Source: Deltaproteobacteria bacterium (GTDB lineage Bacteria; Myxococcota_A; Polyangia; Polyangiales; Houyiibacteriaceae). From it: a stretch of DNA of 64,000 nucleotides. Below the pieces are notes generated by a model. The model was not told the DNA's origin and did no database searches. It saw only the letters and a list, made by a program, of their open reading frames with translations. Shown one piece after another: positions 9,538 to 23,462 of the stretch. The stretch is taken from NCBI GenBank assembly GCA_034670305.1, contig JAXMNT010000036.1, positions 1 through 64,000 of the forward strand. The letters run 5' to 3'. Within the stretch, counting starts at the first letter, position 1. The number at the start of each line of letters is the position of its first letter. The translations under genes and the position numbers were made by a program.

Positions 9538-10545
9538 TCAGCGGCCGAGGTCGAAGGTCATGACGATCGGGGCGTGATCGCTCGCCGCTTCGATCTCGGC
9601 GCCGTGAAGAATGCGCGCTTCGAGCAGCTCGGCTTCGACGTTGGCGGTGCCCAGCATGTAGTCGATCTGTTGCTCGCGTCGGTCGAAGACGAAGGTGTAT
9701 CGGTCCGCGCTCGGCACGAAGCGGGTCAGATCGGTGAAAGCCGACGCGTCCCCCAGCAACGCATCGAGTGGATCGGAGTCCGGCAGATCGTTGAAGTCGC
9801 CCACGATCAGCATGCGGTCGACGCCGCTCTCGAGGCGGCGTTCCGCGATGCGCCGGCACTGCATCGCTTCGGCGAGACGCCGGTCGTCTCCGTTGCCTGG
9901 GGCGGACATGGAGAGGAAGTGCACGATCATCACCGTGATCGGAATGCCGCCCGGCTCAGCGAAGACCTCGAGGGCGTCTCGCGCGAAGAAGTACTCCTCG
10001 CTCCCGTCCGGCGAAGGAAACTGTTCGCCCAGGTGACTGGCGACGTTGGTGATCGGCACCCGCGCGAGGAAGCCGACGTCGATGCCCCGTCCGTCGAAAC
10101 TGTCCATGAGGGCCATCTCGGTGTAGCCGAGTGAGTTCGCGGGGCCGGTTGCGAGGTCCTCAAGGATTCCGAGGTTCTCGACCTCTTGCAGCGCGACCAG
10201 ATCCGCGTCGAGCGCCAGCAGCACATTCGAGACGTCTTCGATCTTCTGGCCGTACTGCCCGCTGGAGAGCACGTCGTCGGCGCGGTCCGGGTCGTTGCGG
10301 GTGTCGAAGAAGTTCTCGACGTTCCAGGTCGCGACCGTGAAACGGACCGGACCGACGACCGGCGCGTCTCGGCCGGCGTCGACGGTGGGGTCGGCGTCGA
10401 GCGGCACGTCGTCGTCGGACGGACACCCCGTGAGGCACAGCGCAGCGACCACCAGGGCCACCAAAGGCGCGCGGCGTGGTGCACGGACCGTCGCGACGGC
10501 CTCGCCGACCGGAGTCGCGCGGGCTGGAAGAAAGAGAAGGGACAC
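9538..10545 (-). CDS. Endonuclease/exonuclease/phosphatase family lipoprotein
   Basis: Lipobox LTGC; ATWNVENFFD, LQEVEN, GDFND, IDY, ASDHAP; start approximate. Confidence 0.85.
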   Translation of the reverse strand: MSLLFLPARATPVGEAVATVRAPRRAPLVALVVAALCLTGCPSDDDVPLDADPTVDAGRDAPVVGPVRFTVATWNVENFFDTRNDPDRADDVLSSGQYGQKIEDVSNVLLALDADLVALQEVENLGILEDLATGPANSLGYTEMALMDSFDGRGIDVGFLARVPITNVASHLGEQFPSPDGSEEYFFARDALEVFAEPGGIPITVMIVHFLSMSAPGNGDDRRLAEAMQCRRIAERRLESGVDRMLIVGDFNDLPDSDPLDALLGDASAFTDLTRFVPSADRYTFVFDRREQQIDYMLGTANVEAELLEARILHGAEIEAASDHAPIVMTFDLGR

Positions 10546-10598
10546 AGAAGTGATGAACAGAGCCTAGCGATGCGCCGACGAAGGCGCACGAAGACGGC

Positions 10599-10982
10599 TC
10601 AGGTCAACTCCAGGAGTCGTTTGGCGCGCTGCTCGGCGTACTTGAGCAGCTCGGTCGCTTCGTCCTCCGGGATGCGGAGCTTCTCGACCAGCGACTTGAG
10701 CAGCCCGACCTCTTCGGTGCTCTGCTCCCCGTCGATGTACGTGAGGATGACCGCGTGCTGGAGCAGCTGACGGCGGTCGGTGGCGGACAGGTCGGTGATC
10801 GGAATGTCGTCGATGCTGCGCGAGGTCTTCGCGTACTCACGAATGGCGTCAGCGTCGTCGCCGCCGATCTCGAACGCTGCGAGCAGCGCCTCGATCACTT
10901 CACTTTCTTCTTCCTCGACCCGGCCATCGGCCCAGGCGACGGCCACGAGGGATTTCAGCATCGCTTCTTGGTGTTCTTGCAT
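10599..10982 (-). CDS. TerB-like (tellurite resistance family) protein
   Basis: AVAWADGRVEEEE and second repeat YIDGEQSTEE, typical of the TerB fold. Confidence 0.8.
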   Translation of the reverse strand: MQEHQEAMLKSLVAVAWADGRVEEEESEVIEALLAAFEIGGDDADAIREYAKTSRSIDDIPITDLSATDRRQLLQHAVILTYIDGEQSTEEVGLLKSLVEKLRIPEDEATELLKYAEQRAKRLLELT

Positions 10983-11048
10983 TCCGCCTCCGGGCCGCGA
11001 GCCTATCAGACCCCTGAGGCCGGGCGCGACCGTTTGTTGTGGGTCCCG

Positions 11049-12155
11049 TCAGCTCAAGAAATCCACGACGGCGGCGGCGATGTGGTCGACGCGGTCTTGA
11101 CCGAGTTCCGGGAACACCGGCAGGGCGAGGACCTCGGCGCACGCCTGCTCGGCGACCGGCAGGCTTCCAGGCTGGTACCCGAGATCGGAGAAACACGCCT
11201 GGAGGTGAAGCGGGACCGGGTAGTAGATCGTGCTCGCGATGCCGATCGACTTCAGGTGGGCTTGGAGCGCGTCGCGCTGCGTGGTGCGAATCACGTACTG
11301 GTTGAACACGTGGCGTTCCACGACGCGCGGGGGCGTGGTGAGGAGCGCCGCTGGGAGGCCTGCCGCGGCGAACCGTTCGTCGTACCGCGCGGCGTTCTCG
11401 TGCCGGCCCGCGTGCCATGCTTCGAGGGCTGGGAACTTGGCCCGCAGGATGGCGGCTTGGAGCGCGTCGAGGCGAAAGTTGCCGCCGATGTGGGCGTGGA
11501 AGTACTTCGGTTTGGCGCCGTGGCCGCGGAGCATGCGCGCCCGTTCGGCCAGCGCTTCGTCTTGGGTGGTCACGAGGCCGCCGTCGCCGAAGCCGCCAAG
11601 GTTCTTGGACGGGAAGAACGAGAAACACCCGAACGTGCCCACGCTTCCAGCGCGCGCGCCTTCGGGTCCGGCCCCGAGGGCCTGCGCCGCGTCTTCGATG
11701 ATCGGGATCTCGCCCGCTACGTCTTGCAGCGCCACCATGTCGACCATCTGTCCGTACAGATGCACCGGCATGATCGCTTTGGTGCGCGGGGTGATCGCGG
11801 CTGCGACCAGCGCCGGGCCCAAGTTGAAAGAGTCCGGTTCGATGTCCACGAAGACCGGCGTGGCGCCGACTCGAGAGATGCAGCCGCCGGTCGCAAAGAA
11901 CGTGAACGGCGTGGTGATCACTTCGTCGCCCGGGCCGATGCCGAGCCCCATCAACGCCAGCAGCAACGCGTCGGTGCCGCTCGAGACGCCGATCGCGTAC
12001 TTCGCCCCGACGTAGTCGGCGAGCTCCACCTCGAGCGCTTCCACTTCCGGCCCGTTGATGAAATGGCCGGATGTGAACACCCGATCAAACGCGGCACGAA
12101 TGCCTGCTTCGAGCGGCGCATTCTGCGCCGTCACGTCCAACATCGGAATCTTCAT
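11049..12155 (-). CDS. DegT/DnrJ/EryC1/StrS aminotransferase (WbpE-like)
   Basis: [37 protein letters not shown]. Confidence 0.92.
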
Positions 12156-12733
12156 TCGACCCTCCGGCACCCATCGGCCGCGATCGCGTAACGGTCGCCG
12201 CAACGCACACACTCGGCCTCGCCCTGCGTGTTGCCGAGCTTCTCACCGCACCGGCACATCCAGCCGCGGTGACGCGCGGGCGTGCCGACGACGAGTGCGT
12301 GCGCGACCACATCGCGCGTCACGACGGCGCCGGCTCCGACAAACGCGTAGGAGCCGATCTCGTGGCCGCACACGATGGTCGCGTTGGCGCCGATCGACGC
12401 GCCGCGGCGCAGTCGGGTGACGCGGAACTCGTCCTTGCGTTCCACGAACGCGCGCGGGTTGTCGACGTTCGTCAGCACGCAACTCGGCCCAAGGAAGACG
12501 TCGTCTTCGACTTCGACCGCGTCGTAGATCGAGACGTTGTTCTGCACTTTCACTCCGTCGCCGAGCACCACCTTGGACCCGACGTAGACGTTTTGTCCCA
12601 GCACGCAGCGGGCGCCGATGCACGCGCCGGCACACACGTGACTGAAGTGCCAGACCTTGGTGCCGGCCCCAATGTGTGCGCCGTCGTCGACGATGGCGCT
12701 CGGGTGCACGAACACGCTCTCGTGCACGCTCAC
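12152..12733 (-). CDS. Hexapeptide-repeat N-acetyltransferase (WbpD-like)
   Basis: [39 protein letters not shown]-terminal CRC..CVRC zinc-knuckle. Confidence 0.9.
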
Positions 12734-13767
12734 GAGGCGCCCTCGGAGGTTGCGCATTCGATCTCGCGGCCACCCTCCCGCAACGAGCGGGCGCCGGCTT
12801 CGAGCGCGCGCACCACGCCGAGGCCCGAGACTCCGTCGGCGAGCGGGGCCACCCGGGAGCGACACGCGTCGAGGAACGCTTCGCACTCACGCCGCAACGG
12901 CTCGGCCATGCGCACCGCCGGCACCACGATGTCTCCGGTGCGGACGCGGACGCCCTCTTCGTACCGAAGCGACGCCGGCGGGGGCTCGACGCCCTTGTCG
13001 TAGATCGTGAGCTTCTGATCCGGCGACGTGTCGTCGAACACCGCCATCTTCTTGCTGCCCACCACGGTCAACATCCGCGTCTTGTGCGGGTCGAGCCAGC
13101 TCACGTGCACGTGCGCCACCCGTCCGGAGGGATACCGGAGCGTGCCGAAGACGACGTCTTCGATGCCCTCCTGGAGGAACACGCCGCCGTGCGCCGCGAC
13201 CGCCACCGGCTCGGCGTCGAGCAGGAAGTTGGCGACCGAGATGTCGTGGGGCGCGAGCGACCACCAAGCGTTCTCGTCGCGTCGCACGACACCAAGGTTC
13301 AGCCGCCGGCACACGACGTAGAGGACTTCGCCGAGTTCGCCCGAGTCGATGAGGCCCTTCAGACGGATGACCGCCGGGTGGTAGAGCAGCAGGTGCCCGA
13401 CCATGAGCATGCGGCCCTTCGCGCGCGCCATCTGCACGAGCGCGGAGGCGTCCTCGCTGCCGAGCGAGAGGGGCTTCTCGACGAGCACGTCTTTGCCCGC
13501 CCGCAGGAGTTCGAGCGCGACGGATGCATGGGACGGGGCATCGGTCGCAACCACCGCCGCACCGATGTCGTCGTCGTCCAGGAACGTGCGTAGGTCGCTG
13601 GAGGCCTTCACCCCGGGATACGTCTCGGCGTGCGACGCGAGCAACGCCTCATCCCGATCGCAGATGCCTTTCAGCGCGCCGAGACCGTGGAAGTTGCGGA
13701 CGTGGTTCTTGCCCCAGCCACCCGCCCCGACCACCACCACACCGGGGGTGCCGGGGCGCGGCGTCAT
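12730..13767 (-). CDS. Gfo/Idh/MocA oxidoreductase (WbpB-like position)
   Basis: [38 protein letters not shown]. Confidence 0.88.
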
Positions 13768-13775
13768 CGTGCCGC

Positions 13776-14990
13776 TCACGCGACGCGCTCGAACACGACG
13801 CCGAGCCCTTGGCCGACACCGATGCAGAGCGACGCCAAGCCGTAGCGGGACTGGCGCTGTTGCATGACGTTCATCAGCGTCGTGACGATGCGGGCACCGC
13901 TGCATCCGATGGGATGCCCGAGTGCGATGGCGCCACCGTTGACGTTCACCTTCTCCGCGTCGAGCCCGAGCTCGCGAATGCAGGCGAGGCTCTGCGACGC
14001 GAACGCTTCGTTGAGCTCCACGACGTCGAGGTCCTTCGCTTCCAGCCCAGCGCGACCGAGCGCTTTGCGGGACGCGGGGATCGGACCGATGCCCATGTAG
14101 CTCGGGTCCACGCCGGCGCTTCCGCTCGAGACGACGCGCGCGATGGGTGTGACCCCGTGTTTGTCCGCCCACTCGAGCGAGGCGAGAAGCACCATCGCCG
14201 CGCCGTCGTTGAGCGGCGATGAGTTGCCGGCGGTCACGCTGCCGCCTTCGCGGAACACCGGACGCAGTCCGCCGAGGGATTCGATGCTGCTTTCGGCCCG
14301 GATGCTCTCGTCGCGCTCCACGGTCCGCTCGACGTCCCGTTTGTGGGCCGGCGGCACGACGACCGCGGCGGTCTCGTGGCGGAAGCGGCCGGCCTCCCAG
14401 GCGGCGGCGGCTTTGATGTGCGAGGTGTACGCGAACATGTCCTGGTCTTCGCGACTGACCCCGTACTTCTCGGCAACGTTCTCCGCGGTCATGCCCATGC
14501 CGAGGAGTGGGAACCGCTGTTCCATCTTCGGGTTGGGAAACCGCCAGCCGAGGCTCGTGTCGTAGATCTTCGGTGGCTTGCGGGGGAAGGCCTCCTCCGG
14601 TTTGCTCATCGCGTAAGGCGCTCGGCTCATGGACTCGACGCCACCCGCCACCATCACGTCGTGGTCGCCGAGCGCGATCGCGCGGGCGCACTGGATGACG
14701 GCTTCGAGCCCGGACCCGCAGAGCCGGTTGACTGTCACGCCGCTTACCTCGAACGGAAGCCCCGCGAGCAGCGACGCCATGCGCGCGATGTTGCGGTTGT
14801 CTTCGCCGGCCTGGTTCGTCGCGCCGAGAATGACTTCTTCGACGTCCTTCTTGGCCTCGCCCTGCCGGTCGAGAAGCGCGCTCAACACCCCGGCGGCGAG
14901 GTCGTCGGGCCGCACCCGGGCGAGCCCTCCCCGGTACTTGCCGATCGGGGTTCGCAGTGCATCGATGACGACGACGTCGCGGGTCTCCAT
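13776..14990 (-). CDS. Thiolase (acetyl-CoA C-acyltransferase, PcaF/PaaJ-like)
   Basis: [33 protein letters not shown]. Confidence 0.92.
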
Positions 14991-15683: not shown

Positions 15684-18629
<2,946 letters not shown>

Positions 18630-18947
18630 GTGCTTGTTACAGACCGAGCGTGCGAGGTTCGCCTTGGGTACATCCCAACGCCGATGTCCCCGATGGGCGC
18701 AGTCTCCTAAGCCCCCTCCACCACGTCAAGCTTGGTCCAAGATTGGTAGGATCCCTGCGGCATGGATCAGTTCGTTTCGGCTGGGGCCGTTTCGATCTCT
18801 TCCGGCGCGAACGCGGGAGGGGGTGGGGTCTGCGCCACGGGCGGAGGCGTGGAAGCGCATGCAGCGACGCCCCACAACGCGAGGAGCGGTGCGAGGCGTT
18901 GGGGGGACCGACCGTGGAAGGTCATCTCGGCCGTGCTCTTGGAGGAC

Positions 18948-19370
18948 TCAGTAGGCCAGGTTGCCGCGTTTGGTCATCGAGGTCTCGCCGAACTGGTTGA
19001 CCATGCCTTCGCCGCTGTCCTGGAACTCGAAGACGCTCGCGATGCGGAAGGCGTCGCCGTTGTCGGCGCGGATCGTGATGTCCACGGTCTCGGCGTCCTC
19101 GACCTGCGGGGTCGTGACGAGGAGCGTCTCCGGGTCGATGATGGTCACCGAGGGCGCGCGCCGGGTCCCGAAGAACACGGTGTAGCCGATGTCGGTGCGG
19201 AAGTTCTGGCCGCCGATCTTCACCGGCTGCTCCCCGCCAAGACCCGCGTTTCGCGGCTCGACGGTGAGAATGGCCATTTCGCCACCTTCGCTCTCGCACC
19301 CGGCGAGGACGCCGACGGAGACAAAAGCGATGAGGAGGGAGCTGCTGAGCATCGTGGAGAGGAGGCGCAT
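18948..19370 (-). CDS. IPT/TIG domain lipoprotein
   Basis: Lipobox LAGC; VEPRNA...GGEQPVKIGGQNF...VFFG...TLLVTTP. Confidence 0.75.
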   Translation of the reverse strand: MRLLSTMLSSSLLIAFVSVGVLAGCESEGGEMAILTVEPRNAGLGGEQPVKIGGQNFRTDIGYTVFFGTRRAPSVTIIDPETLLVTTPQVEDAETVDITIRADNGDAFRIASVFEFQDSGEGMVNQFGETSMTKRGNLAY

Positions 19371-19502
19371 GAGGCCCGCACGATATTCCCCGTTGGGCCG
19401 GCCCGTCAATCGCGCTCTTCACCGCGGCCATTGGGTGCGAACTGGCTTGTTTGCCCGAGCTGGATGGTTAACTCGGCCCCCCGCGGCTGGATCGAGGAGC
19501 AC

Positions 19503-20849
19503 ATGACCGTCCTGGCAATGAGTGTGGAACGAGTGGAAGACCATCCCGACGCGGATTCGCTGCGGGTGCACCAGCTGCGCGCCGGGGAGCGCACGGCGCA
19601 GGTCGTAGCGAACCTCGAGACCGTCTACGCGGTGGGCGACGTCGTGGCGGTGGCGCTCGTCGGAAGCACGCTGCAGGGCAACCTCTCGATCCGGCGGGTC
19701 CGGCTTCGGGGCGTCGACTCGTTCGGGATGATGCTCGGACGGGTGGAAGAGGCGGTTGGCACGGACCTGTCCCACCTTCACGAAGACCCGGCGGCGGAAG
19801 CGTCGAGCGGGGCCGAACGACACGCCTTCGTCGCGTGGCCGAGCATCGAACAACTGCACCACCTCCGCGCGCACTTCGCCGCTCAGGCGGAGACGCCGCC
19901 GCAGGTCGCGTACCGGGCCAAGGTCAAACTCGACGGCACCAACGCGGGTGTCCAGATCCTCCGCATGCAAGGCGCCGAGGACGAGGTGTCGGTCGTGGCG
20001 CAGAGCCGCACCCGGCTGCTCTCTGTCGAGCAGGACAACTACGGGTTCGCCCGATGGGTGGACGCCCGCCGCGATGGGTTCGCGGCGCTCGCGCAAGACG
20101 TCGCGACCGGGGAGGACCGGTCGCTCGTCACGGTGTTCGGCGAATGGGTCGGGCCCGGCGTGCAGCGGGGGGTGGCGGTCTCCAAGATCCCGGAGAAATG
20201 TTTCGTCGTCTTCGCGATTCAGTTTGGCGATCCGATGCGCGACGCGGCCACGCTCGAGGTCGAGCCGGCTGCGATCGAAGCGCGCGTCGGCGCGATCGAT
20301 GGCGTGCATGTGCTGCCGTGGGTGGACCTGTCCGTCTCGCTCGACTTCGCCGATCCGGTCGCGCTCGCCGCCGGGGCCGAACGCATCAACGCGCTCGTCT
20401 CCGACGTCGAGCAGTGCGACCCGTGGGTGAAGGGCGTCTTCGGGATCGAAGGCGTCGGCGAAGGGGTGGTGCTCTACCCCGATCCGAAGGGCGCGCCGCT
20501 CGACCGCGACCTGTGCTCGGAACGCATGTTCAAAGCGAAGGGCGAAAAGCACCGCGTGGTGCGGACCAAAGCGCCGGCTCAGATCGATCCGGAACAGGCC
20601 AAGAGCGTGGCGGAGTTCGTCGAGCTGGTGGTCACGGACGCGCGCCTCGAACAAGGGGTGCGCGAGGCATGCGACGGCGTGTTCGAGATGAAACGCATCG
20701 GCCATTTCTTGAAGTGGATCGCCGGCGATGTGCGGAAGGAAACGAGCGTGGAGCTCGAAGCGGCAGGGCTCACCTGGAAACAGGTCGGCAAAGCCGTGTC
20801 GGCCAAGGCGAAGTCCTTCTACATCAACGGGGTCCGGCGCATCGACTGA
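19503..20849 (+). CDS. ATP-dependent RNA ligase (Rnl2-like) with N-terminal tRNA-binding-type OB domain
   Basis: HPDADSL...RLRGVDSFGM (OB); motif I KLDGTN, Ia QSR, III FGEW, IIIa FVVFAI, IV EGVV, V FKAK; helical C-terminal domain. Confidence 0.85.
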   Translation: MTVLAMSVERVEDHPDADSLRVHQLRAGERTAQVVANLETVYAVGDVVAVALVGSTLQGNLSIRRVRLRGVDSFGMMLGRVEEAVGTDLSHLHEDPAAEASSGAERHAFVAWPSIEQLHHLRAHFAAQAETPPQVAYRAKVKLDGTNAGVQILRMQGAEDEVSVVAQSRTRLLSVEQDNYGFARWVDARRDGFAALAQDVATGEDRSLVTVFGEWVGPGVQRGVAVSKIPEKCFVVFAIQFGDPMRDAATLEVEPAAIEARVGAIDGVHVLPWVDLSVSLDFADPVALAAGAERINALVSDVEQCDPWVKGVFGIEGVGEGVVLYPDPKGAPLDRDLCSERMFKAKGEKHRVVRTKAPAQIDPEQAKSVAEFVELVVTDARLEQGVREACDGVFEMKRIGHFLKWIAGDVRKETSVELEAAGLTWKQVGKAVSAKAKSFYINGVRRID

Positions 20850-20903
20850 CCGGTGCCCATTCGCGGCAGTGATAAGGATCGACGCGGCTGCTAGCCTCAC
20901 GGC

Positions 20904-21539
20904 ATGCGCAGCGGATGGGTCTTGGTGGTGGGGTGTCTGGTGGCGTGTGGCGAGAGCACCGCGCCACCGGACGGCTCCATCGATTCGGGTGCGGTTGACG
21001 CGCCCGCGGTCGACGCGCCCGGGGTCGACGCGCCCCCGGTGGACGCGCCTGGGGTCGACACCGGACCGCGACCGGATGCCGGACGCCGCTCTTGCGGCGG
21101 GTTCGTGGGCGCGACCTGCGAAGACGACGAGTTCTGCGACTACTCGTTCGACGATGCCTGCGGCGCCGACGACGGTGGCGGGTTCTGCGAACCGCGGCCG
21201 ATGGATTGCCCGGACATCGCGGACCCCACCTGCGCATGCGATGGGATGGTCTACGGCAACGCCTGCGAGGCCAACGCGGCGGGCTTCGATGTGAACGCGC
21301 TGCGCGGCGGCTGCACCCCGCCCGAGGGCACGTTCGGGTGCGGAGCGAGGTTCTGCGACATGAGCTCGTACTGCTTGGTCATCGTGGACGACACCGGCCT
21401 GCCGCCGACCTACGAATGTCGCCCGCTCCCGGGTGCCTGCGGGGCCGAGCCCACCTGCGCGTGCGTGGCGGAAGAGCCGTGCGGCGACATCTGCGAGGAG
21501 CGGTCCGACCACCTCGAGGTGGTCTGCCCAGGCGGCTAG
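20904..21539 (+). CDS. Cys-rich lipoprotein with a Kazal-like module
   Basis: Lipobox LVAC; VDAP repeats; CPDIADPTCACDGMVYGNACEA. Confidence 0.75.
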   Translation: MRSGWVLVVGCLVACGESTAPPDGSIDSGAVDAPAVDAPGVDAPPVDAPGVDTGPRPDAGRRSCGGFVGATCEDDEFCDYSFDDACGADDGGGFCEPRPMDCPDIADPTCACDGMVYGNACEANAAGFDVNALRGGCTPPEGTFGCGARFCDMSSYCLVIVDDTGLPPTYECRPLPGACGAEPTCACVAEEPCGDICEERSDHLEVVCPGG

Positions 21540-21582
21540 CAGCAAAGACCGCGGACAGCGACAGAGAGAGCAGCAGACTCGA

Positions 21583-21787
21583 CGTCGGCTTCGGCGTCGG
21601 CTCGGCGTCGGCTTCGGCTTCGGCGTCGGCGTCGGCGTCGGCGTCGGCTTCGGCTTCGGATTCGGATTCGGCTTCCGCTTCCGCTTCCGCTTCCGCTTCC
21701 GCTTCCGCTTCCGCTTCCGCTTCCGCTTCCGCTTCCGCTTCCGCTTCCGCTTCCGCTTCCGCATCCGCTTCCGCTTCCGCTTCCGCT
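21583..21787. repeat. (GGCTTC/GGCGTC)n then (CGCTTC)n tract between convergent genes
   Basis: Directly visible; second half is a near-perfect ccgctt run. Confidence 0.95.
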
Positions 21788-21794
21788 TAACTGT

Positions 21795-23462
21795 TCAGCG
21801 GGCCCAGCCGAGGAGGATGACGACGCCGATGCTGTTGGGGGGCGCGTCGGGGCGGTCGCCCTGCGCGACGCCGATGCCGATGTAGCGCACCTCGGGATCG
21901 AACGTGGGCTCGAGGCGGCTCGCTTCGCTCACGTCGCCGACGACGGCCATCAATCCGCCGATGCGGCTGAACATCATCGAGAACCGCCGGAGCGATCCGC
22001 TCGCGTCGTCCACCGTGTCCTGCTGGCTCTGGTTCGGGTTCGCGAAGTACTCGGTCGCGGCGTTGCCGGCCGCGGTCTCGAGGTTCTCATCCACTTCGAG
22101 CGCAGACGCCCCTCGCGCCCGGCGACCCGCGTTGATCGCTTCCAGCAGCTCGGCACGTGCATCCGCGGCGTCGATCTCGGCGTTCATGCGGATGAAGACT
22201 TCGGTTGCGACGAACGCGGTCCGCGAGCCCTCGGTCTCCGACACGACGCCGACGCCGACGTGGGTCACCGACCGGTTGAGGATGTTCGCGCGGTGGCCCG
22301 GGCTGGCGAGCAGCCCCTGGTGGATCTCGGTCGGCGAGTACCCTCGGCCGATGTTCTCCAGGATGAGCCCGGAGCGGTAGCCGGCGCGCTCGACGCGGGC
22401 CGGCGCGTCGCCCGTGGTCGGGCTCCGGTGTCCGACGAATCCATTCGCCACCATGTCTTCGCTGTGGGCCCGGGCGACGTCGTCGAGCCCGTCGTGGGCG
22501 CTGAGCGGCCGCAAGCCGGCGCCTTCCCGCGACTCGTTGATGCGGGCGAGTAGCGCGCGCGCCACCGCTGCGGCGTCGCTCATCTCCGAGGCGTCGTCGC
22601 GCACCCGAATCGCCACTTCGCGGGGAGGCTCCACCCCGACGTACACCGGGAAGTTCGCGACCACCGAGTCGCCGCGGGATCCGCGCGCGAGCACCTCGAC
22701 CTGATACGCGCCGGGCGCAGCGAGTGGGACCTCGACCGTGAAGTCGGGCCCTGGGCCGGCGGGCAGCCGTTCCACGTCGGCACCGGGCGGCGCCACCGCC
22801 ACCGTCGGGGTCGAGTAGCCGTCGGAGAGCCGGCCGCGCAGGGTGATCGTGCGGGTCCCCGCGGCGAGCGCGCGCGGCACCGAGTCCAACGTGAGCACTC
22901 GGGTGCTCAGCGTGACGACGACCACGCGAAGGTCCCCCTGGAGCACCACCGCAGCGCCGAAGTGCGTGTAGCGCTGGCGGGCCAAGAACCGGCGCACCCC
23001 ATCGGCGACCGCGACGTCGAGACCGCTGTCGCTGGACTGTCCGAGCACCAACAGATGCGGCACGGGCTCCACGAGGCCGAGGTGGCGCGTGAAGAGTTCG
23101 ATCACCTCGTGGGGAGGCGCTGCGCCGCCCTGGCCGAGGTGCGGCACGATCCACTCGGCCAGCAAGGCCAAACGTTCGTCGCCCTGCAGCAGCACACCCG
23201 CGTCCTGACCCGCATCGCGCACGCCCGAGGCCACCTCATCGGCCGCGGACTCGGCCCGCACACCGCCTGGTTCCGCGGTGGTCTCGTAGCTGTCTCGGCC
23301 GGGGCCCGGCACCGAGATGGTCTCGACGGAGGCGTGTTGCACGTCGCCGTTCTGAGTTCCGCCACCACATGCGACGGCGGCCAGTGACCACACGAACCAC
23401 CAACGTCGTGCGCCGAGGCGCTCCGAACCAGGGAGCGAAGAGAGAGCACCGGAATGCGACAA
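21795..23462 (-). CDS. CAP (SCP-like) domain lipoprotein
   Basis: INESR..AGL, ARAHSEDM..GFVGH, ENI, SPGHRANIL, VGVG; lipobox-like AVAC; start approximate. Confidence 0.82.
   Translation of the reverse strand: MSHSGALSSLPGSERLGARRWWFVWSLAAVACGGGTQNGDVQHASVETISVPGPGRDSYETTAEPGGVRAESAADEVASGVRDAGQDAGVLLQGDERLALLAEWIVPHLGQGGAAPPHEVIELFTRHLGLVEPVPHLLVLGQSSDSGLDVAVADGVRRFLARQRYTHFGAAVVLQGDLRVVVVTLSTRVLTLDSVPRALAAGTRTITLRGRLSDGYSTPTVAVAPPGADVERLPAGPGPDFTVEVPLAAPGAYQVEVLARGSRGDSVVANFPVYVGVEPPREVAIRVRDDASEMSDAAAVARALLARINESREGAGLRPLSAHDGLDDVARAHSEDMVANGFVGHRSPTTGDAPARVERAGYRSGLILENIGRGYSPTEIHQGLLASPGHRANILNRSVTHVGVGVVSETEGSRTAFVATEVFIRMNAEIDAADARAELLEAINAGRRARGASALEVDENLETAAGNAATEYFANPNQSQQDTVDDASGSLRRFSMMFSRIGGLMAVVGDVSEASRLEPTFDPEVRYIGIGVAQGDRPDAPPNSIGVVILLGWAR

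Follow-up and report, generated by a model that had tools for sequence, protein, structure and literature searches.

A predicted three-domain RNA ligase joining a tRNA_bind-type OB fold to an Rnl2-type body in a myxobacterial genome

The 64-kb stretch of DNA analyzed here (64,000 nucleotides of contig JAXMNT010000036.1; hereafter the window) carries, at positions 19503-20849 of the forward strand, a gene for a putative RNA ligase of 448 amino acid residues (protein P0001), and it raises two questions: to which of the recognized ligase families does the protein belong, and which RNA would it seal? The answer to the first, based upon the sequence and a structural model, is that three domains are predicted, namely a tRNA_bind-type OB fold, an Rnl2-type nucleotidyltransferase and an Rnl2-type all-helical C-domain, which would make the protein a strict member of neither Rnl2 nor Rnl5. 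As to the second, we judge it modestly probable that the gene encodes an ATP-dependent 3′-OH/5′-PO4 RNA ligase of the Rnl2 lineage, the OB domain of which recruits tRNA as the predicted substrate.

Predicted domains and catalytic motifs

The AlphaFold2 model, which draws on 63 members of the family, has high confidence along its whole length (pLDDT 94.2, pTM 0.90). Residues 1-100 (19503..19802, +) are predicted to form an OB fold of the tRNA_bind type: the Pfam family tRNA_bind (PF01588) matches residues 8-95 above its gathering threshold (40.3 bits against a cut-off of 27, E 3.4e-10), and the domain includes the peptides HPDADSL (residues 14-20) and RLRGVDSFGM (residues 67-76). Structural alignment of residues 1-91 using VIA-align places them on the YtpR-like tRNA-binding protein 3bu2 (Z 14.1, root-mean-square deviation (rmsd) 1.5 Å, 90 residues, 30% identity) and on the B2 domain of PheRS beta, PheT 4p71 (Z 13.2, 36% identity over 93 aligned residues), the fold matches to tRNA_bind OB proteins having an rmsd of 1.5-2.2 Å; phmmer likewise matches PheT 4p71 to this domain (E 3.7e-10). 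The hhalign comparisons are congruent, relating the OB domain of the family to PheT-B2 (98.8%, E 1.1e-16) and to the N-domain of Rnl5 (97.5%, E 5.5e-12). The OB fold postulated in the original prediction, which a model had made from the letters and their open reading frames, is thus borne out.

The catalytic domain follows at residues 105-352 (19815..20558, +), where Pfam RNA_ligase (PF09414) matches residues 139-327 (40.8 bits against a cut-off of 27); PHROG 548 'RNA ligase' extends the similarity to residues 109-438, aligned with profile positions 3-329 of 341 (E 1.3e-46). All six motifs of the covalent nucleotidyltransferases are present and in order, as had been claimed from the letters, and conservation was scored over the 63 family members. 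Motif I (KLDGTN, residues 142-147, 19926..19943) has invariant K142 and G145, the former being the predicted AMP acceptor and, in the alignment, the counterpart of the lysine in motif I of T4 Rnl2. In motif Ia (QSR, residues 167-169, 20001..20009) Q167 and R169 reach 90% conservation or more; motif III (FGEW, residues 212-215, 20136..20147), which aligns with FGEF of T4 Rnl2, has an invariant E214 flanked by G213 and W215 at 90% or more. Motif IIIa (FVVF, residues 234-237, 20202..20213) retains F234 and F237 at that same level, motif IV (EGVV, residues 320-323, 20460..20471) has invariant E320, G321 and V323, and in motif V (FKAK, residues 343-346, 20529..20540) K344 is invariant, with F343, A345 and K346 conserved to at least 90% (all on the + strand). 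The top row of the VIA-align search with the catalytic domain is T4 Rnl2 (2hvr_B; Z 17.1, rmsd 3.1 Å, 203 residues) and the next best is trypanosome TbREL1 (1xdn; Z 16.9), while T4 Rnl1 (2c5u; Z 12.1) is a fold match at the superfamily level only. Two metagenomic homologs of the OB-ligase, P0133 (794 residues) and P0146 (1152 residues), are split by inteins bearing LAGLIDADG endonucleases; the intein of P0133 is placed within motif I, between KLDG and SNAG, and two LAGLIDADG stretches were matched in P0146.

The remaining 96 residues (353-448; 20559..20846, +) are assigned to an Rnl2-type all-helical C-domain. Folded alone on a 32-sequence alignment, they give a four-helix unit (pLDDT 84.5), for which residues 245-328 of T4 Rnl2, the whole of its C-domain, rank first among 48,161 representative chains in a structure search independent of Foldseek (Z 7.5, rmsd 2.9 Å, 78 residues). 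For a helical domain such a Z is no more than moderate, and a Foldseek search using the model of the C-domain returned no match at E≤0.001, T4 Rnl2 having the best TM-score (0.54) at a non-significant E of 1.6-2.3; the identity of the domain therefore rests decisively on sequence. Here hhalign relates it to six phage 'RNA ligase 2' proteins (99.9%, E 2e-31, 91 columns), and the profile of the family can be aligned with full-length T4 Rnl2 up to chain residue 301 (2hvq, E 2.4e-13), compared with E 1e-8 for a T4 Rnl2 construct from which the C-domain is missing. The profile of the C-domain alone gave a single chance match among PDB sequences (E 0.65), and PF18043 (T4_Rnl2_C) is matched by nine of the 63 family members and not by P0001 itself. 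The peptides VTDARLEQG (residues 377-385), FLKWIAGDVRKE (residues 402-413) and WKQVGKAV (residues 425-432) lie in this domain and, like every other peptide quoted in the original prediction, are present in the translation, for which coincidence is far too unlikely an explanation. Its suggestion of an Rnl2-like C-domain holds as well. R381, D409 and E413 are invariant in the family and align with R267, D293 and E297 of the 2hvq chain, which we take to be R266, D292 and E296 of native T4 Rnl2 and essential residues of its C-domain.

At the level of the gene, positions 19503..20849 (+) constitute a single uninterrupted open reading frame with the TGA stop included. The frame stays open upstream as far as 18762, and no homologs were found that reach into this part 5′ of 19503. 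Since the homologs are 425-471 residues long and cover 97-100% of the query, and since a GAGGAG box (19493..19498, +; read off the intergenic sequence and presumably serving as a Shine-Dalgarno element) precedes the ATG by 4 nt, the start at 19503 is considered right. The antisense strand is also open in register with the ligase frame; no family match was found for that frame, and open antisense frames are common at 68% GC. The GC content of the gene (67.8%) is that of the host genome (68.1%), and its GC3 (0.86) and GC2 (0.43) are typical of host genes; recent horizontal transfer into this genome was ruled out on the ground that the composition equals that of the host. An Rfam scan of positions 17000-23000 at E≤0.1 found nothing, and a promoter and terminator scan gave nothing useful for the ligase gene.

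Position between Rnl2 and Rnl5

In the published taxonomy, Rnl1-4 and Rnl6 consist of a nucleotidyltransferase and a distinct C-domain, whereas Rnl5 consists of an OB domain and a nucleotidyltransferase (PMC7261155). Rnl5 is described as possessing a PheRS-B2-like N-module and as terminating shortly past motif V, where no C-terminal appendage follows (PMC4408790, PMC1807946, PMC7261155). For comparison, 14 Rnl5 (TIGR02306) genes were collected out of 301 Myxococcota genomes; the N-domains of these proteins retain HPNAD.LE and RLRGV.SQG. The OB and nucleotidyltransferase domains of the window family together align colinearly with full-length Rnl5 (hhalign 99.1%, E 5.5e-19, 284 columns), while the C-domain has no counterpart there (0.2%), which agrees both with the sources just cited and with the earlier assertion that Rnl5 possesses the OB domain and no such C-domain. 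The catalytic domain by itself is closer to phage Rnl2 (100%, E 1e-52) than to Rnl5 (97.7%, E 1.8e-12). The earlier idea of a hybrid is confirmed: an Rnl5-type front is joined to an Rnl2 body.

Neither of the corresponding NCBIfam models recognizes the protein. The Rnl2 equivalog TIGR02307 gives 21.3 bits, far below its cut-off of 197.15, from which we conclude that the ligase is a distant branch and not the equivalog of T4 Rnl2; TIGR02306 gives 16.2 bits against 151.15, so that a full-length match to canonical Rnl5, with no distinct C-domain, is not what was found. In architecture the protein shares with Rnl2 a catalytic domain closest to Rnl2/REL1 and an all-alpha C-domain homologous to residues ~244-329 of T4 Rnl2, and it shares the OB fusion with Rnl5. 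However, nothing precedes the nucleotidyltransferase in Rnl2, where here there is an OB domain of 100 residues, and no appendage follows it in Rnl5, where here there is a helical C-domain of 96 residues. With both cut-offs missed and one architectural feature of each family violated, strict membership in either fails by these sequence-based measures. Such an architecture falls outside the Rnl1-Rnl6 scheme as set out in 2020 (PMC7261155). Both Pfam domains are already annotated in databases; a full-text literature search, the reach of which did not extend to one key RNA-repair survey, found no description of a tRNA_bind-Rnl2 fusion, nor was a biochemical study of the family found by it.

The family shows that the modules that define Rnl2 and Rnl5 are not mutually exclusive. 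Its OB domain scores nearer to PheT-B2, and nearer to the Rnl5 N-domain, than either of these does to the other (92.8%, E 4e-7), a hint, belonging to the bolder and unlikely proposal set out below, that Rnl5 could have been derived from a three-domain ligase of this kind via loss of the C-domain.

The kinship with Rnl5 also bears upon what the OB domain does. In Rnl5, this domain mainly promotes self-adenylylation through contact with the gamma-phosphate of ATP, and the enzyme seals generic nicked duplexes (PMC7261155); a tRNA_bind-type OB fold is, consequently, no proof of tRNA specificity. It is possible, though we rather doubt it, that the window protein likewise seals nicks generically, its OB domain assisting lysine adenylylation within the same molecule and supplying a third element of the clamp, with no specificity for tRNA; its substrates would be any nicked duplex with an RNA 3′-OH strand, for example the RNA:DNA hybrids of DNA repair. 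Besides the colinearity given above, the best Foldseek match is NgrRnl (PDB 5COT, E 1.7e-13), which superimposes over residues 1-351 with Z 14.5 (VIA-align). Residues of the NgrRnl OB domain touch the ATP gamma-phosphate, deletion of that domain leaves 4% activity (PMC7261155), and Deinococcus becomes radiation-sensitive after loss of DraRnl (PMC5397189). The overall rmsd of the NgrRnl superposition is, however, about 12 Å, indicating that the predicted arrangement of the domains differs, and relatives that lack the OB domain, as well as phage Rnl2, keep the same core and presumably adenylylate themselves without it.

The family and its genomic company

A word-index protein search recovered 1111 homologs at E≤1e-3 among 8000 scored; the 120 matches listed are all 425-471 residues in length, and most have both Pfam domains. 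An exhaustive search of 50%-identity representatives gave 3598 at E≤1e-3, many of them 310-370 residues long and matching only residues ~109-445. The family is large and mainly cyanobacterial and myxobacterial, its members being annotated automatically in the source databases as 'RNA ligase family protein' or 'tRNA-binding EMAP/Myf-like protein.' Genomic context was surveyed in 80 loci of species-representative genomes, covering about 6 kb around the ligase, with several of the loci that lack tRNA arrays being contigs of 2-5 kb. The OB form accounts for 61 loci (45 labelled Cyanobacteriota, 10 Myxococcota, two metagenome-assembled genomes (MAGs) labelled Pseudomonadota, and four unlabelled); in the other 19 the ligase is OB-less, and no OB domain occurs anywhere within about 6 kb.

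Phages possess the OB-less form only: all 206 matching phage records are confined to residues ~101-447 or a part of them, so that coverage of the query stays below 80% in every case. A quick maximum-likelihood tree was made of the core, with 87 rows and with the truncated sequences L054 and L067 left out; in it the cyanobacterial sequences make up one supported clade (SH-aLRT 98). The myxobacterial OB forms, including the window protein, are basal on unresolved branches with an OB-less clade nested among them, and five of the six phage sequences fall outside, alongside two OB-less myxobacterial ones. The virus-related core suggested earlier is therefore partly upheld, in that phage Rnl2 proteins match the body of the protein; the window protein itself belongs to a bacterial clade that excludes five of the six sampled phage sequences. 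Presence and absence of the OB domain requires 7-8 changes on this tree, which therefore establishes neither one fusion event nor the direction of it, and a single origin was dropped as unsupported.

Many relatives are found in the company of tRNA genes. Using ARAGORN, at least three (3-41) were detected in 31 of the 80 loci and at least ten in 23, the largest array comprising 41 tRNAs in 13 kb (L001). Of the 31 array loci, 30 have their tRNAs exclusively on the ligase strand, and 22 have them on both sides of the ligase. The exception is a myxobacterial MAG (L018:4534-5182, -), in which six tandem tRNA-Ser genes are located ~1 kb upstream of the OB-ligase on the opposite strand. By label, arrays accompany 25 of the 45 cyanobacterial OB-form loci and three of the five cyanobacterial OB-less ones; Acaryochloris marina (L005) is among the cyanobacteria with the gene in an array. 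G014, a genome from the same family as the window organism, contains an OB-less copy with seven same-strand tRNAs on its flanks. That tRNA operons hold more than half of the cyanobacterial copies argues against a purely generic nick-sealing role, while the lack of tRNA context at the window copy and at most myxobacterial copies is consistent with one.

Long tRNA arrays ('L-arrays') have been described as horizontally disseminated and silent until induced by translational stress, with embedded protein genes that include an HNH endonuclease and with RNA-processing genes enriched nearby; that response also induces toxins that cleave tRNA (PMC8421152). The ligase named in that text is rtcB, and the OB-Rnl2 ligase is unmentioned in the passages covered. 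Some tRNAs of the arrays surveyed here were called by ARAGORN with four-base anticodons (ctct, tgta) and one with a CTA, amber-reading anticodon (L025:3458-3536, L040:4080-4158, L005:11390-11463, L010:701-774); these could be frameshift- or stop-suppressor-like. Array loci also contain genes for PIN toxins, a SLATT-like effector, a YafQ toxin, an AAA_15/AAA_21 ATPase, an antitoxin component and IS605 OrfB/TnpB (L042:10047-11030, L042:12499-12876, L044:9155-12341, L033:5956-6300, L043:4260-5519). The presence of such conflict and mobile-element genes fits the view of the arrays as mobile islands.

A further group of neighbors, identified by blastp clustering followed by Pfam and then by local hidden Markov models, is concerned with ADP-ribose. 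NADAR was found in ten of the 80 loci, in eight of the ten on the ligase strand and within about 1 kb; Macro domains of two types occur in ten and microbial PARG in six. At least one of the three is present in 18 loci, 16 of which are array loci. Tpt1/KptA, an RNA 2′-phosphotransferase, occurs in one locus only, beside Macro, in the 41-tRNA array of Lusitaniella coriacea (L001:3698-10947), where PARG, NADAR, the OB-ligase, an HNH gene, Macro and Tpt1/KptA share one strand; this looks like a complete NAD+-linked RNA-repair toolkit within a tRNA operon.

These neighbors suggest another function, which we regard as improbable for the window protein: a eukaryote-like heal-and-seal pathway tied to NAD+/ADP-ribose, in which the ligase would seal tRNA breaks carrying, or just freed of, a 2′-phosphate or ADP-ribose cap, and Tpt1/KptA, Macro, NADAR and PARG would strip those groups or their by-products, acting in trans in the window genome. 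A KptA-2H-Macro(-NADAR) branch of NAD+-linked RNA repair has been proposed (PMC9503650). The rest of the 7.9-Mb window genome does encode RtcB, Tpt1/KptA, NADAR, two RlaP matches and five Macro matches. The single occurrence of KptA among the 80 loci nevertheless speaks against such a pathway, as does the failure to find any ADP-ribose gene near the window gene or near the Myxococcota-labelled copies, and co-location within a horizontally spreading array may be mere hitch-hiking. Rnl2-type enzymes are, moreover, not known to require a 2′-phosphate. Independent contrasts are also few; on supported branches only four independent pairs are available for OB against RlaP and for OB against the ADP-ribose genes (median p 0.5 and 1), and both associations are accordingly given as raw counts only.

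RlaP (PF10127) lies 3′ of the ligase in nine of the 19 OB-less loci (L065, L068-L072, L074, L077 and L080) but was seen beside 0 of the 61 OB forms, as though a ligase had either an OB domain or RlaP as its partner. RlaP is a nucleotidyltransferase; in vitro it extends the 3′ ends of damaged RNA by one or two nucleotides, and its authors suggested that it takes part in the repair of tRNA (PMC12776372).

The copy in the window is a monocistronic, long-resident and rare accessory gene with host-like composition. Upstream of it and divergent is a TIG-domain lipoprotein gene with a lipobox (18948-19409, -), beyond which is found a response regulator with DUF4388 and TPR (15684-18629, -); downstream is a Cys-rich, lipoprotein-like open reading frame for 211 residues with a lipobox and no Pfam match (20904-21539, +). 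Genes for a CAP-domain protein and a Ser/Thr kinase are also among the neighbors. None of these belongs to RNA repair, in keeping with the earlier remark that no end-healing partner is adjacent, and the 211-residue and TIG-domain frames were rejected as functional partners given that neither recurs beside homologs. Among close relatives, the ligase core is present in three of 40, the remaining matches being PheT. Of 400 other Myxococcota genomes, seven have the core at E≤1e-30, with only two OB forms, both apparently disrupted: one is split across two frames corresponding to residues 1-327 and 339-445 (G012:C1:2673094-2674369, L086), and the other has an in-frame TAG (G228:C277:30653-31975, L127). 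This scarcity would suit a decaying or noncatalytic remnant of mobile tRNA-array cargo that has no present ligase function in its host. We consider that very improbable for the window copy, in view of its intact frame, the presence of all catalytic residues, the confident model and a codon composition like that of the host.

Elsewhere in the same genome, which has a total of 89 tRNA genes, contig C89 (L126) contains 21 same-strand tRNA genes in 3.6 kb (10166-13728, +), with a gene for an HNH endonuclease (HNH_5, E 1.6e-17; 13768-14457, +) directly after them. This arrangement resembles the HNH-linked long tRNA arrays known from cyanobacteria. Two further PF09414 matches were noted: a minimal RNA ligase of 236 residues beside an AbiEii-type nucleotidyltransferase gene (C72:30570-31058, -; L081) and a WGR-domain ATP-dependent DNA ligase on contig C93 (L083:989-2128, -).

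Predicted substrate and comparison with known systems

In the reading that we prefer, namely an Rnl2-lineage ligase with tRNA as its substrate, K142 would attack ATP to give ligase-AMP, as the conserved motifs suggest. The AMP would then be moved onto the 5′-phosphate of the break, with the Rnl2-type C-domain aiding break recognition as in T4 Rnl2, where this second step is lost when the C-domain is deleted, and attack of the 3′-OH upon the adenylylated end would complete the seal. The OB domain would dock tRNA, or a similarly folded RNA, and so present nicks in its stems and loops to the clamp that the nucleotidyltransferase and C-domains form together. For the window copy, RtcB, Tpt1/KptA, RlaP, Macro, NADAR and the 21-tRNA array would all act in trans. 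Since OB-less relatives and phage Rnl2 keep the same body, catalysis probably does not depend on the OB domain, in contrast to Rnl5, and the domain is most likely an added substrate-recruiting module. What makes tRNA the probable substrate is the genomic company of the family: the tRNA operons, Tpt1, and RlaP in the sister group.

Several points weigh against this reading. Apart from the distance to the T4 Rnl2 equivalog and the OB domain of Rnl5, which seals generic nicks, the neighbors of the window copy are unrelated to RNA repair; there are no tRNA genes nearby, the only one in the window being 27 kb from the ligase. Just one of the ten Myxococcota-labelled OB-form loci has nearby tRNAs, and these are on the opposite strand (L018). 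Embedding in arrays may, furthermore, reflect co-transfer on a mobile island and not a common pathway. The broken-tRNA target put forward in the original prediction has gained indirect support from homologs embedded in tRNA arrays, and is still conjectural for the stand-alone window copy.

A bolder proposal, which we think unlikely, is that these proteins represent a seventh architectural class of ATP-dependent RNA ligases (Rnl5-type OB, Rnl2 nucleotidyltransferase and Rnl2 C-domain) in which the OB domain docks tRNA. The cyanobacterial ligase gene would share its transcripts with stress-induced arrays and with Tpt1/KptA, Macro, NADAR and PARG as a horizontally spreading 'tRNA rescue island,' providing both spare tRNAs and resealing by eukaryote-like, NAD+-linked heal-and-seal. 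If true, this would be the first pointer to the natural substrate of nick-sealing ligases, the physiological substrates of which are an acknowledged open question; the functions of Rnl5 have been called 'uncharted' (PMC5397189). The natural fusion of an Rnl2 body with a tRNA-binding-type domain, found repeatedly within tRNA operons that are activated by attacks on translation, provides a concrete hypothesis, that of a tRNA substrate, and for the field of RNA repair it makes the substrate question testable. The window copy supplies a stand-alone, host-adapted myxobacterial example with a 21-tRNA array elsewhere in its genome.

Among known systems, T4 Rnl2 (2HVQ, 2HVR, 1S68) and the phage RNA ligase 2/RnlB proteins resemble the window protein in nucleotidyltransferase fold, motifs and helical C-domain, the phage proteins being 23-41% identical to it over residues ~101-447. 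They differ in lacking the N-terminal OB domain, which none of the 206 phage records covers, and the complete annotated phage Rnl2 coding sequences examined are shorter at 326-347 residues versus 448. The Rnl5 enzymes, Deinococcus DraRnl (DRB0094) and Naegleria NgrRnl, likewise have a PheRS-B2-like OB domain directly before the nucleotidyltransferase, whereas the 96-residue Rnl2 C-domain is present only in the window protein, the catalytic domain of which is nearer to Rnl2.

Closest in sequence are the OB-less, RlaP-associated bacterial Rnl2-like ligases, which are 45-52% identical over residues ~105-445 and fall among the OB forms in the tree; they differ from the window family in lacking the OB domain and in having RlaP just downstream in almost half of their loci. 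The tRNA_bind OB proteins (PheT B2, YtpR, Trbp111, the C-terminal domain of MetRS, and EMAP II) are like the N-domain in sequence and fold, but they either stand alone or form part of an aminoacyl-tRNA synthetase, none being joined to a ligase. T4 Rnl1, the phage ligase for repair of the tRNA anticodon loop, offers a parallel to the logic proposed here, that of a ligase core with an appended tRNA-specificity domain; that the Rnl1 C-domain confers tRNA specificity is said in the title of a paper cited by PMC4408790 (its reference 27). Rnl1 belongs to another family, and its specificity module is a C-terminal helical domain, whereas in the window protein that part would be played by the N-terminal OB fold.

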